A stretch of 64,000 nt of DNA from an uncultured Alphaproteobacteria bacterium (GTDB lineage: Bacteria; Pseudomonadota; Alphaproteobacteria; CAAHEQ01; UBA3637): NCBI GenBank assembly GCA_934216505.1, contig CAKQBW010000001.1:20553-84552 (forward strand), given 5' to 3'. Position numbers and translations under genes: made by a program. The notes under the pieces are model-generated. The model saw nothing but the letters and a program-made list of their open reading frames with translations. It was not told the DNA's origin and did no database searches. Positions 1 to 10,130 of this stretch are shown one piece after another (the first letter of the stretch is position 1; each line of letters starts with the position of its first letter).

Positions 1-2
1 AC

Positions 3-953
3 GGAGGCTCGGATAAAGGTGCAGGCGGCGGAACAAATGGCGGCTCAGAAAACGCCCCTGACGGTGGGTCCGATGGAGGCGCGGACAAAGGTGCAGGCGG
101 CGGAACAAGTGGCGGCCCAGGAAAGGTCTCTAAATCTGGGGCTGTTGGAACTGTTGAAAACAGACTCAAATCTGCTAAATCTGAAACACCTGAATTTATC
201 ACAACAACAAGCCAATATGGGGGGGATGATGGCAAGGCACTTACCCACACAAAAAAATATTCTAAAGACGGAGACTTTTTAATGCATGAAGATATAGTAG
301 ATAATTTAACCGGTTCAAGGACGCATATAGACCATACTTATGATTTTGCAGGGGGGGGATTTCCCGAAGAAAAAAAGAGTGTGCGACATGATTATAATCC
401 TGATGGGACATGCGCATATGTTTCAGAGATGAAGGTTAATAAAAATGGAAGAGATAGGGTGAGTCAGAAATATAAATCTGACGGGACAATTGATTATTAT
501 TCAATAGATTGCGTTGATAAAAATGGAAAAGAGAGGTACTATTTTTTTGAAAATGATCTAAGAAAAGAGAAAAGGGATTACAACTGTAAGTATAGAGGGA
601 AAGCAGTCAAAAGTGTGTTCGAGCTAACTCGTAAGGATGAAGGAGAGCAGGAACGAACTATTGTCTATCTTTCAGGGGAAAGGTATAGAGAACGCCAGTA
701 TAAGGATGATGAAGGTTGCAATATAACTTCAAAAAGCTTCTATGATTCATCGGATCGTTTGTGTAAACACACCTATGTAAATCATGACACAGGGGTAAAC
801 ACAAGTCTTGACTTAAAATATTACAAGAATGATAAAAATGAGAATATGATTGAACGAAAATTCACTGATTCATCGGGGAAGGTCTATAAACATATAATTT
901 TAAATGAGGCAACAGGTGAAGAAAAGGATATGTTAAATTCAAATGAAAAATAG
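3..953 (+). CDS. 3' portion of a large repeat protein whose start lies upstream of the window: Gly/Ser/Asp-rich 25-aa repeats followed by a Tyr/Asp-rich (YD-like) C-terminal domain
   Basis: Frame 3 is open from base 3 with no stops and is continuous with listed ORF 282..953. It translates as GGSDKGAGGGTNGGSENAPDGGSDGGADKGAGGGTSGG..., then HTYDFAGGGF / RHDYNPDGT / YKSDGTIDYY motifs. A 75-bp DNA direct repeat is visible at about 10-135. Confidence 0.6.
   Translation, partial: GGSDKGAGGGTNGGSENAPDGGSDGGADKGAGGGTSGGPGKVSKSGAVGTVENRLKSAKSETPEFITTTSQYGGDDGKALTHTKKYSKDGDFLMHEDIVDNLTGSRTHIDHTYDFAGGGFPEEKKSVRHDYNPDGTCAYVSEMKVNKNGRDRVSQKYKSDGTIDYYSIDCVDKNGKERYYFFENDLRKEKRDYNCKYRGKAVKSVFELTRKDEGEQERTIVYLSGERYRERQYKDDEGCNITSKSFYDSSDRLCKHTYVNHDTGVNTSLDLKYYKNDKNENMIERKFTDSSGKVYKHIILNEATGEEKDMLNSNEK
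8..135 (+). repeat. 75-bp in-frame direct repeat (Gly-rich 25-aa unit) in the 5'-truncated repeat protein
   Basis: GGATAAAGGTGCAGGCGGCGGAACAAATGGCGG and GGACAAAGGTGCAGGCGGCGGAACAAGTGGCGG lie 75 bp apart. Confidence 0.6.
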
Positions 954-2433
954 GTTATGGACGATTTGGGGGTATATTTTTACACTGTTCTTATTGAACG
1001 GGTGCAAGTCGTCTATTTCCTATAATTCCGACCTGTTTAAACCTGAGCAGGCAAATTGTTGGCCGTGCAAAATGTATATGCAAGCCTTTAATGCTATTAA
1101 AGGGACGATGGATGCTGTTTTGCCTTTAATCGCAGAGAATACCCTTTCTATTTTAAAGGTAGTTCTACCTATTTGGCTGATGTTTAAAATTTTGCCTTGG
1201 TTTCTTTCCCCAACGACTCCGAACTTTAAAAAAGATATATCCGAAATGGTGATTGTTGGTTTTAAGGTAATAATAGTGGTTCTATTACTTTCTTTCAAGA
1301 CAGGGACAGGTTCCGCTTCCAGCACGGTTTATATTGACTTTGATTCGCCCAATTCTTCCTCTTCTGTAAAGGGATTACCGGGATATACTTTAACAGGAAT
1401 GGAACAAATGTCGGGGTCAGGAAAAATTTTGTTGTACGATGTGGCGGGAAAGATGTTTCTTCAACCGATTGCGGATATCTTTTTGGGGGTGTCTGAGTTG
1501 GCTTTGGCAACGCCTTCTTCGGTGGGGGTGTCTATGTCTAATTACAGTTCATCGGGATTGACAGGCTCCACCTTTGGTGATTTTTTTACCGATTTATTGG
1601 GTGAATTAAGTAAAAAAACAACAGGAACGAATGTGCTAGATACTTCGGCAATTTCTTCCCAATTTAGGTCATTATATACAGGCGACAAGATATCCGAAGA
1701 TGCTATGTTTGGTGAATTACCCATGAAAATTCAATCTATTGTTTGGTTGTTGTATGATGCGTTGTGGAGTGGTATGGGGTTAGCTTTTCAATTATTTTTG
1801 TTAAAATCTATTCCCGCATTTTTGGCTGGCATTTTAATCTTTTGGGCTCTTTTTGAAATGATGTTAAAATTGCCGATTTCTTTTGTGGAAGCGATTTTAT
1901 ATTTAGGTTTGACAGTGATTTTATTGCCCTTTTATTTAGCTTATTGGATTTTTCCAAGCCTATCAAGAGGTATTTTAAAAAAACTTTTCCATCAAATTTT
2001 TTCGGCCTTTTTTGATATTTTATTTTACTGTATTTATGTGGCGTTTTTGGTAAGTATTTTGCGGGTGTATCTGCAAGCGAATAGTGCTGTTTCTTACCTG
2101 TTTAATTCGGACTTTCAAAGTCAAGAATCAGGATTACGGGAAGCCGCTTCAAACATGAATACCTCCTTTTTGATTATGACGGTTTTAATTTGGGGAATTT
2201 TAAAATTGTTTGACCATGTCCAAGAATATAGTTCTTTCTTTTTTGACGGGGCAGGCCAGAAATCGGGTATATCTAAGCTGATTAACCGCTTTAAAAAGTT
2301 GGCTTATCAACTTGGAAAGGCGGCAGTGATGGCTGCAGCGGGAAATTATGCGAGTGCTGGGAAGGCTGCTCTTGATGCGGGGAAAGAGGCGCAGGGCATG
2401 GCCAGTGATGCGATGGGGGAAGCCAATAAATAG
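943..2433 (+). CDS. polytopic inner-membrane protein (496 aa) with lipobox-like N-terminus (LLNGC), periplasmic CWPC motif and Ala/Gly-rich C-tail; possibly TrbL/VirB6-like
   Basis: Multiple predicted TM segments (e.g. IVWLLYDALWSGMGLAFQLFLL, AILYLGLTVILLPFYLAYWIF). Motif ANCWPCKMY sits before a TM segment. C-terminal tail is AAVMAAAGNYASAGKAALDAGKEAQG. The start overlaps the stop of the upstream gene. Confidence 0.45.
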   Translation: MKNRLWTIWGYIFTLFLLNGCKSSISYNSDLFKPEQANCWPCKMYMQAFNAIKGTMDAVLPLIAENTLSILKVVLPIWLMFKILPWFLSPTTPNFKKDISEMVIVGFKVIIVVLLLSFKTGTGSASSTVYIDFDSPNSSSSVKGLPGYTLTGMEQMSGSGKILLYDVAGKMFLQPIADIFLGVSELALATPSSVGVSMSNYSSSGLTGSTFGDFFTDLLGELSKKTTGTNVLDTSAISSQFRSLYTGDKISEDAMFGELPMKIQSIVWLLYDALWSGMGLAFQLFLLKSIPAFLAGILIFWALFEMMLKLPISFVEAILYLGLTVILLPFYLAYWIFPSLSRGILKKLFHQIFSAFFDILFYCIYVAFLVSILRVYLQANSAVSYLFNSDFQSQESGLREAASNMNTSFLIMTVLIWGILKLFDHVQEYSSFFFDGAGQKSGISKLINRFKKLAYQLGKAAVMAAAGNYASAGKAALDAGKEAQGMASDAMGEANK

Positions 2434-9409: not shown

Positions 9410-9410
9410 A

Positions 9411-10130
9411 ATGACAGATCCAATTTTTCAAGCCCCTGATATTCCAACGCAAGGCGTAAATGAAGAAAAAACGCCCGAAAGGGAAGCGCAAATGGCTCCA
9501 CAATCGGTGCAACAAAAGCTTGGGTCTTCACAACCTCAAAATGTGCAAGTACAGGCGAGTCCAACACCGCAGGAACCCACTGAGCCTGTATCCCCTGTGT
9601 CGCCTCAAATCCAACCCACTCCGATTCCTCAGCCCGCTCAACCTGAGCCGACTCCTGTAAATCAAGAGGAACAAACAACGGAAACTCAATCGCAAAATCA
9701 AATCAACAATCTAAAGGCAAAATTGGCGGGGTTAGATCTTCAACAGGTGCGTGGAAAGATTCAAACTTATCTGTGGTATGTGTTGGGGGGCTGTTTCCTT
9801 TTGGGACTGATGTTTGGTTGTTCTATGGGGGGAGGCAGTTCTCAACCCGTTCAACAAAAAGTATCAGGTATGGAACGGTTTATTGTTCGCAACAGTGATA
9901 TTCCCCCCAAAGTAAGACGCTGTGGGGTAGTCAATATCTCAACGGAAGCCTGTCGTTATTATGTTTTAAATTCAAATACTTATGACAGGAAAGCGGAGGA
10001 TTTCTTTAAGTTAGTTCAAGATCAGGTAAAAAAGGATGAATATTATATTCGTCAGGTGAATCCTATTTATGCGCAACAACCGATTCACCCAGGGTATTTT
10101 GCCGAAATTTTAGTCCCCGCAACGAAATAG
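9411..10130 (+). CDS. Pro/Gln-rich bitopic membrane protein (N-in, single TM, ~100-aa periplasmic C-domain); possible secretin partner
   Basis: ATG lies 2 nt after the secretin stop. N-terminal 110 aa are P/Q/T-rich. TM segment is IQTYLWYVLGGCFLLGLMFGCSM. A Gly/Ser linker precedes a C-terminal globular part. Confidence 0.5.
   Translation: MTDPIFQAPDIPTQGVNEEKTPEREAQMAPQSVQQKLGSSQPQNVQVQASPTPQEPTEPVSPVSPQIQPTPIPQPAQPEPTPVNQEEQTTETQSQNQINNLKAKLAGLDLQQVRGKIQTYLWYVLGGCFLLGLMFGCSMGGGSSQPVQQKVSGMERFIVRNSDIPPKVRRCGVVNISTEACRYYVLNSNTYDRKAEDFFKLVQDQVKKDEYYIRQVNPIYAQQPIHPGYFAEILVPATK

Follow-up and report, generated by a model that had tools for sequence, protein, structure and literature searches.

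The window analysed here, a stretch of 64,000 nucleotides (nt) from the genome of an uncultured Alphaproteobacteria bacterium, opens with a block of eight genes (g1-g8, positions 1-10130) that brings together three predicted membrane proteins of the VirB6/TrbL type (g1-g3), a regulator (g4) and a divergent secretin homologue (g7) set among three orphan proteins (g5, g6 and g8). The locus joins new subfamilies to three orphan families in a conserved arrangement that has not been described. We tentatively read the eight genes as encoding parts of one undescribed envelope-spanning apparatus, at a probability of about 0.45. To our knowledge, VirB6-type subunits have so far been known only from type IV secretion systems (T4SS), and secretin rings only from type II and type III secretion systems (T2SS, T3SS), type IV pili (T4P) and filamentous phage. 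Secretins and VirB6 proteins each typify machines that are regarded as distinct in both evolution and mechanism, and here they are kept together across a clade, which suggests either an undescribed secretion or adhesion apparatus or a VirB6-type role outside the canonical T4SS. Full-text literature searches returned no description of a VirB6 and secretin combination. The hosts are uncultured Alphaproteobacteria of animal and human guts, a neglected group.

In family scans g7 has no match to Pfam Secretin (PF00263), Secretin_N or STN even at E<=1, ten sampled close relatives have no Pfam Secretin match, and its profile returned nothing meaningful from the PDB sequences. An AlphaFold2 model built with 16 homologues (pLDDT 79.5, pTM 0.70, with pLDDT of ~80-93 over residues 60-300) starts with a signal peptide and an N0-like domain, continues with one or two ring-building units of the alpha-beta-beta-alpha-beta kind, and has a beta region at the C-terminus. 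The nine best Foldseek matches of this model in the PDB were all full-length secretins, headed by BfpB (9u5s_A, E=6e-9) and PilQ (1e-7), with ExeD, InvG and a Deinococcus secretin chain (DR_0774) after them. Against the N-domains of EscC, MxiD and XcpQ the Foldseek probability was 0.95-1.0, in keeping with an N0 domain followed by a ring-building domain. The TM-scores were low, as expected for a monomer model compared with subunits taken out of rings.

Profile homology points the same way. Searching 1.8 billion representatives, we found 185 clusters related to g7, and the weaker relatives among them (E 1e-17 to 1e-5, 450-820 aa) score 45-64 bits with Pfam Secretin, one carrying a fused TcpQ domain. 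An hhalign comparison of the g7 family with these genuine secretins gave a probability of 99.4% and E=1.9e-21 over g7 residues 12-305, a span that takes in N0, N1 and the beginning of the secretin domain. The N-terminus has a hydrophobic segment at residues 6-24 followed by VQA|G, a predicted Sec signal peptide, and the cysteine pair C44/C304 is invariant in the window's lineage. Profile homology and the structural model together identify g7 as a divergent, shortened secretin homologue with predicted signal peptide, N0 and N1 domains. The original prediction, made from the sequence, had called this 384-aa protein secretin-like, and that assignment stands, though without a Pfam Secretin match.

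The C-terminal domain is where g7 departs most from known secretins. It has ~105 residues where the Pfam Secretin model has 169 positions, making the domain ~60 residues short, and its last 95 residues alone align to secretins with an hhalign probability of only 6%. The end motifs GIPVP...SELLLIMKFNYI recall the secretin C-terminal signature G.PG...RSELVIVLKPRVV, and the central part of the secretin domain appears to be missing. In known secretins the corresponding part forms the inner gate hairpins. Besides the three orphan families, the locus defines a shortened secretin subfamily that is invisible to Pfam.

We regard g1-g3 as a trio of extended VirB6-like proteins because profile comparison shows them to be paralogous and because an orthologue of g1 matches TrbL. 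By hhalign, the g2 family aligns with the g1 family at E=2.9e-15 and with the g3 family at E=1.8e-16, and the g3 family with the g1 family at a probability of 99.6 and E=1.5e-23. The membrane domain of gene 1 lies upstream of the window and was read from L006, the contig of a closely related strain, in which the secretin-like protein is 97% identical and the other genes are 91-98% identical to those of the window. L006 reaches 1.7 kb further upstream and covers the N-terminal part of gene 1, a 622-aa polytopic protein that bears a CWFC motif and scores 36.8 bits with Pfam TrbL (PF04610; cutoff 25.9 bits). About ten independent homologues of the g1, g2 and g3 types match the same region of the TrbL model at 17-24 bits, below the cutoff (23.5, 22.4 and 19.8 bits for g3 orthologues), with no other family recurring among them. 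In the window itself, g2 and g3 have no Pfam match at E<=1 and no NCBIfam match; they can be linked to TrbL only through their paralogy to g1, and the similarity to Pfam TrbL is marginal (17-37 bits). Profiles of the VirB6-like families matched none of the PDB sequences, VirB6 included.

Profile comparison thus identifies three paralogous, predicted polytopic inner-membrane proteins of the extended VirB6/TrbL type, each with a CW[PF]C motif and a hydrophilic C-terminal extension of its own. A hydropathy scan gave all three the same layout, in which two clusters of hydrophobic helices (at least five helices) flank a large loop, as in TrbL/VirB6 proteins; the clusters fall at residues 59-117 and 284-423 of g2, 187-255 and 430-562 of g3, and 217-260 and 401-531 of the g1 orthologue. 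The CW[PF]C motif sits just before the first core helix, on the periplasmic side. The g2 and g3 families show no variation in CWPC; one g1 orthologue has lost the motif. In g2, residues L18, G20 and C21 of an LxGC lipobox and C39-W40-P41-C42 are invariant across 11 homologues. Both the TrbL/VirB6 likeness of these multi-spanning proteins and the paralogy of two of them with a CWPC motif had been predicted correctly. Gene 1 had been described as a giant repeat protein; that it is the third VirB6/TrbL paralogue had been missed.

The extensions differ among the three proteins. That of g2 is a short Ala/Gly tail. In g3, a Lys/Glu/Ala-rich stretch, coiled-coil-like by eye, is followed by a further hydrophobic segment (GIGAIIGVP) and by ~3.5 copies of a 48-aa repeat visible at the protein level, rather than the four copies first counted; Tandem Repeats Finder (TRF) reports 2.5 copies of a 144-nt period with 70-76% matches at 5004-5366. 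Within the window, g1 begins with a Gly-rich region (GGSDKGAGGGT...) of about two 25-aa units, GGSDKGAGGGTNGGSENAPDG and GSDGGADKGAGGGTSGGPGKV, and continues into a Y/D/G/K-rich tail. This tail had been described as YD-like. RHS_repeat (PF05593) has no match in the window's g1 tail and reaches only E=0.034 in one orthologue, and the likeness to RHS/YD proteins is one of composition only.

The g1 tail (window 282-953) is hypervariable. Between the window and L006 its protein identity is 39%, against 91-98% for the neighbouring genes, and its ratio of nonsynonymous to synonymous substitution rates (dN/dS) is 0.84, with dN of ~0.35. The orthologue in L001 (595 aa) lacks the tail entirely. In L006, the ORF (open reading frame) with the TrbL domain ends ...PRPEGGG*, and the Gly-rich/YD tail goes on in another frame from GGGVDGAGGG; the frameshift lies at a G-rich tract (L006:1880-1960, the junction being at about 1895), ~60 nt upstream of window base 1, and faulty assembly, a split pseudogene or phase variation by slippage could each account for it. 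The tail is one fast-evolving tip on an old functional core locus, and a hypervariable tail on one VirB6-like protein may set strain-specific contact. Such a tip also recalls polymorphic surface or toxin domains.

The module that follows the trio is opened by g4 in all loci. Two stretches of g4, at about residues 10-63 and 96-150, match Pfam HTH_3 (PF01381; E=2.2e-18, 66 bits), a helix-turn-helix (HTH) family, and the same region weakly matches the models of the regulators RstR and TrbA, below the cutoff, as well as PHROG families of phage repressors. The original prediction of tandem HTH domains with an inactive LexA/CI-type domain is confirmed in its first half; the second is weak, as the C-terminal domain scores E=0.03 and 14.4 bits with Peptidase_S24, below the cutoff of 23.3. 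Among positions from residue 200 onwards that are conserved in at least 12 of 13 homologues there is no Lys, and the sole Ser is S235 in a CPSTL motif; g4 appears to lack a Ser-Lys catalytic dyad, with S235 not mapped onto the S24 model.

As predicted, g5 and g6 are acidic proteins with no transmembrane (TM) segments and no recognisable domain; both lack any Pfam, NCBIfam, PHROG or PDB-sequence match. g5 has an N-terminal domain and a C-terminal YSEIIED motif conserved in the window's lineage. In GC-rich relatives it retains only the N-terminal domain of ~100 aa and grows to an acidic, Ala/Glu/Pro-rich protein of 907-1509 aa (L046:5373-9902, L056:6055-9894, L047:6383-9898 and L049:7052-9775); g8 is likewise enlarged there, to 257-452 aa, and the enlarged g5, g6 and g8 have no Pfam domains. 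The g6 family, with more than 131 sequence clusters, all unnamed, has two helical bundles linked by a disordered acidic stretch, and its motif GPAPDGFE is invariant in all 34 aligned homologues. Only within the window's lineage is its basic C-terminal tail, VQRKLSFSLKPKK, invariant (at window 8192-8242, QNSVQRKLSFSLKPKK); in distant relatives it is degenerate or absent.

The bitopic, Pro/Gln-rich character noted earlier for g8 is borne out by a single TM segment at residues 121-139. It has no match to a Pfam or NCBIfam family or to the PDB. The invariant residues in the window's lineage include M1, P4, F6, P9, P12, C171 and C181; the N-terminal pattern MxxPxFxxPxxP (window 9411-9450) is invariant there, and the most distant relatives are only Pro-rich at this end. 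The Pro/Gln-rich stretch that follows is probably cytoplasmic, by the positive-inside rule read by eye, and the periplasmic domain (~90 aa, with the two invariant Cys) is kept even in the most distant relatives. We rejected an identification of g8 as VirB10, as its Pro-rich part is cytoplasmic and its periplasmic domain only ~90 aa long. The g6 tail and the g8 N-terminus both have the look of docking peptides.

The combination recurs well beyond the window. Homologues of g2 formed 12 clusters among 5.8 billion proteins, and when a single genome was scanned for each species, nine metagenome-assembled genomes, all labelled 'Alphaproteobacteria bacterium', proved to carry the locus. Carriers of the locus include GCA_045598925.1, GCA_051885475.1, GCA_045635125.1, GCA_965356995.1 and GCA_016735385.1, as well as UBA3768, UBA3637 and SIG60. 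Genes in the window's lineage run dksA-(yacG)-yajC-secD-secF-g1...g8-gltX-slyX. Conservation of gene order in related genomes had been named as a check on the original prediction, and the order of VirB6 genes followed by g4-g8 is indeed kept in at least seven lineages with differing flanks and GC contents of 38-50%. The loci L023 and L024 keep the same internal order next to rimI/tsaB and carry VirB6-like genes with CWFC, CWCC or CWPC; the metagenome loci L035, L047, L049/L055 and L056 (GC 44-50%) keep it between yet other flanks, with a g5 of 907-1279 aa. All identifiable flanking genes are housekeeping (SecDF, GltX, RimI/TsaB, M16 peptidase, RNase HII, LolCDE, RNase J, Lon). Between the window and L006, dN/dS is 0.046-0.13 for g2-g8, and 0.044 for gltX. 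Because of this conserved order and low dN/dS, we regard the block as old and functional: an uncultured alphaproteobacterial clade associated with animal guts inherits it vertically, as a core locus under purifying selection. The block had been described as an island, a description we reject, since its GC content and skew are native and it is syntenic between secDF and gltX in related genomes; horizontal acquisition fits neither the composition nor the synteny.

Neither hallmark component is accompanied by its usual partners. We looked for these at the locus and in 10-kb flanks, and in more than 25 loci there was no gene for VirB2, VirB3, VirB4, VirB8, VirB9, VirB10, VirB11 or VirD4, for GspE or GspF, for a Tad component, for a pilin or for a partner ATPase. 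Other T4SS genes, such as virB3 and virB4, are absent around L001-L003, L006, L023, L024, L047, L049, L055 and L056, and no locus holds the assembly ATPase or platform of a secretin system of the T2SS, T4P, Tad, T3SS or inovirus kind. The defining context of both families, virB3/virB4 for VirB6 and an assembly ATPase, platform or pilin for secretins, is thus missing. Elsewhere in the window, ten large ORFs outside the block contain no T2SS, T4P or T4SS ATPase domain, consistent with the earlier remark that no ATPase was visible; the P-loop ATPases among them are MoxR, DnaB and RuvB. All but one of these ten ORFs, which lacks a Pfam match, encode housekeeping proteins or ordinary envelope and signalling proteins, such as a YadA-anchor adhesin, an OEP outer-membrane protein and a hybrid histidine kinase. 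The view that the locus matches no described architecture is upheld, with nothing of a T4SS, T2SS, Tad system or T4P found within 10 kb of any related locus examined.

Among known systems, the trio comes closest to the extended-VirB6 arrays of Rickettsiales, and g7 to the secretins of type IVb pili and the compact pIV. The RvhB6 proteins of Rickettsia have 674-1154 aa around a domain of ~413 aa (PMC2653234), Anaplasma has a repeat-bearing VirB6-4 (PMC7648143, PMC3556328), and this 'extended VirB6' pattern has been reviewed (PMC12857230). Shared with these arrays are chromosomal tandem TrbL/VirB6 paralogues, of ~450-1000 aa here, with large, hydrophilic, partly repetitive and strain-variable extensions. 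Unlike them, the present locus has three paralogues rather than four or five, a conserved CW[PF]C, a g2 lipoprotein, and a regulator and secretin module following; its upstream neighbours are yajC-secD-secF or other housekeeping genes, not virB3/virB4. The analogy to a Rickettsiales-type T4SS array, drawn in the original prediction, fails on this defining neighbour.

Like the type IVb-pilus secretins (the BfpB, TcpC and PilN class), which are its best structural match, g7 shows profile homology over N0, N1 and the start of the secretin domain and adjoins a small partner gene. It differs from them in having no Pfam Secretin match, a C-domain ~60 residues shorter, and no lipobox, so that it is not a lipoprotein; the locus, moreover, has no pilin, ATPase, platform or prepilin peptidase. 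In pilMNOPQ of type IVa pili, a secretin is encoded with bitopic and cytoplasmic accessory proteins and without an ATPase in the operon, and a secretin operon lacking its ATPase is therefore not anomalous in itself. The gene order and number of pilMNOPQ are different, however, g5, g6 and g8 have no detectable similarity to PilM, PilN, PilO or PilP, and here an XRE regulator leads the module. The filamentous-phage pIV is a compact N0-N3-secretin protein of ~405 aa; in contrast, g7 has a chromosomal, conserved and non-viral context, no pI/Zot partner and no PHROG match. DotD and the Xanthomonas VirB7, the only known precedent for an N0 inside a type IV secretion machine, share the N0 fold with g7 but are small single-N0 lipoproteins, whereas g7 has N1 and a beta domain besides its N0 and resembles true secretins more closely.

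If the eight genes do specify one apparatus, g7 would oligomerise into an outer-membrane ring, and the disulfide-containing periplasmic domain of g8 would dock on the g7 N-domains, by analogy with GspC, PilP and BfpG on their secretins. Partners of the GspC/PilP/BfpG type bind the N0 domains of secretins. Such docking would fit the tight spacing of the two genes, in which a 1-nt spacer separates the g7 stop (9409) from the g8 ATG (9411), as the original prediction had seen, and g8 directly follows g7 in every locus. On the cytoplasmic side, the invariant N-terminus and Pro-rich tail of g8 may recruit the acidic, helical g5 and g6. The VirB6-like trio would form an inner-membrane and periplasmic channel or stalk, and g4 would control the expression of g4-g8. 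We speculate that the output is the exposure or delivery of the variable VirB6-like C-terminal extensions, above all the YD-like tail of g1, for adhesion or contact-dependent interaction; the energy source is not encoded at the locus. A more specific proposal, which we consider somewhat doubtful, is that the eight genes form one new trans-envelope machine in which VirB6-type subunits are coupled to a secretin-type outer-membrane ring and the three orphan proteins bridge the two; its secretin may lack the gate region, and the machine would export or display the polymorphic extensions of its own VirB6-like proteins with no dedicated ATPase at the locus.

Several observations weigh against a single apparatus. 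The partner genes of both families are missing from the surroundings, as described above. We know of no described T4SS that uses a secretin, and the word "secretin" is absent from a 2025 T4SS review. The last ~80 residues of g7 have no significant alignment to the secretin C-domain, which leaves pore formation unproven. Moreover, g4-g8 occur without adjacent VirB6 genes in four lineages (L017/18, with GC of ~30%, L022, L030/31 and L046), and a gap of 57-190 nt, with room for a separate promoter, always separates the trio from g4. These last two features speak for a credible alternative in which two modules are neighbours by descent: g1-g3 would be the VirB6 array of a scattered Rickettsiales-style T4SS, g4-g8 a secretin and alignment-type operon of a type IV filament system, and the partners of both would lie elsewhere. 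In Rickettsia the genes of the T4SS lie at a number of separate places in the genome. Its chromosomal arrays of extended VirB6 proteins, five in tandem (RvhB6a-e), do belong to a T4SS (PMC2653234). A filament system of the type IVb pilus kind is suggested by the TcpQ-fused secretin among the closest genuine secretins to g7, and the pilMNOPQ operon offers an analogy for a module without its ATPase.

Near the stand-alone module there are also very large proteins without Pfam matches, 434-719 aa long (one is truncated at the end of its locus), whose prepilin-like N-termini have Gly and then a hydrophobic stretch with Glu at +5; three lie in L017 (L017:1-3413, - strand) and one in L030 (L030:2602-4761, + strand), at a distance of 2-5 kb from the module. 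The L017 module has only one 235-aa protein, weakly similar, as its equivalent of g5 and g6, and no likeness to g8 was detectable in its downstream bitopic protein. On the other side, trio and module adjoin in the same order in at least seven lineages whose flanks differ, which is unusual for unrelated neighbours; no flank contains a T4SS or T4P gene, and g5, g6 and g8 resemble neither PilM/N/O/P nor GspC/L/M. The original prediction had allowed for one system or for separate modules: the recurrence of the same order with changing flanks speaks for one system and the four lineages with g4-g8 alone speak for separability, and on balance the evidence leans towards functional linkage. In the protein that follows the secretin-like gene of L017 (L017:11727-12284), the TM segment is preceded by a Cys4 zinc-ribbon (CPNC...CCVC) at the N-terminus, which is not Pro-rich.

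Two further explanations bear on g7 and on the origin of the block. It is improbable, in our view, that g7 is a non-pore N0/N1 scaffold of the DotD or Xanthomonas VirB7 type, that is, a periplasmic or outer-membrane-associated subunit of a VirB6-containing T4SS-like machine. The shortened C-terminal domain, the poor alignment of its last 95 residues and the lack of a Pfam Secretin match in g7 and its sampled close-family members would all suit such a scaffold, and yet the best Foldseek matches are full-length secretins rather than DotD or VirB7, the profile homology extends beyond N0/N1 as far as residue 305, within the first part of the secretin domain, and the terminal motifs resemble the secretin C-terminal signature. 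We give hardly any weight to a domesticated or decaying remnant of a mobile element, either an inovirus-like prophage with a CI/RstR-type repressor and a pIV-type compact secretin or a conjugative element with TrbL, an explanation that is largely refuted. Secretins of ~400 aa are typical of the pIV of Ff phages, the pIV structure 7ofh is among the fold matches of g7, and the weak RstR, TrbA and phage-repressor matches of g4 hint in the same direction. However, none of the eight genes encodes an integrase, replication protein, Zot/pI ATPase, coat protein or relaxase, and no such gene was seen among the annotated neighbours of related loci; g4 alone has a PHROG match; and tblastn of g1 and g7 against 72,556 plasmids gave no match. 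Native composition, chromosomal synteny conserved across species and dN/dS of about 0.05-0.1 also argue against a mobile origin.

The genes of the block are arranged as listed in Table 1. The original prediction had counted nine co-oriented, tightly packed genes; the shared strand and the packing stand, with very short spacers throughout, but the number is eight. The mechanically called ORFs at 19-282 and 282-953 were rejected as genes, being wrong-frame or truncated readings of g1, whose frame 3 is open over 3-953, and the large gene said to run off the 5' end is real. The genes g1 and g2 overlap by 11 nt, g2 and g3 are separated by 11 nt, and the spacers are 57 nt between g3 and g4 and 25 nt between g4 and g5. 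The start of g6 is most likely at 7031 (MNQE...), though the ORF opens at 7016, as the orthologues all begin MNE or MNQ.

Table 1. Genes and repeats of the block at the start of the window.
Feature	Positions	Strand	Description
g1	3..953	+	C-terminal 316 aa of a putative extended VirB6/TrbL-like protein; frame 3 open from base 3 to the stop
g2	943..2433	+	Putative VirB6/TrbL-like polytopic lipoprotein, 496 aa; lipobox, CWPC, Ala/Gly-rich tail
g3	2445..5438	+	Putative extended VirB6/TrbL-like protein, 997 aa; CWPC at 180-183, C-terminal repeats
Tandem repeats in g3 C-terminus	5004..5366	+	144-nt (48-aa) period, TRF
g4	5496..6473	+	XRE-type regulator, 325 aa; two HTH_3 domains and a C-terminal, probably non-catalytic beta domain
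g5	6499..7026	+	Acidic, Gln-rich cytoplasmic protein, 175 aa; orphan family
g6	7031..8242	+	Acidic cytoplasmic protein, 403 aa; orphan family
g7	8255..9409	+	Divergent secretin homologue, 384 aa; predicted signal peptide, N0 and N1, shortened C-terminal beta domain
g8	9411..10130	+	Bitopic inner-membrane protein, 239 aa; one TM segment, periplasmic domain of ~90 aa

The GC content of the block (38-43%) and its strong positive GC skew are like those of the remainder of the window. A scan for promoters and terminators returned counts at chance expectation, and the sole strong promoter-like site, at 10137-10165, precedes gltX. On the 3' side of the block follow gltX, a SlyX-like gene, the YadA-anchor adhesin, tolB and ribosomal operons. 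The adhesin, a trimeric autotransporter of 483 aa anchored in the membrane by a YadA-like domain, lies at 12108-13559, just 3' of gltX/slyX, and the gene at its position is also YadA-anchored in two relatives, with 792 aa in L001 and 490 aa in L006. Over window positions 1-36000 nearly all genes are on the + strand and the GC skew is uniformly positive (~0.14-0.27), a leading-strand-like pattern; beyond ~36 kb the skew falls and several genes are on the - strand. The 379-aa ORF at 56558-57697 has no Pfam match at E<=1e-5, and Rfam finds a single tRNA gene in the window, at 55985-56056.

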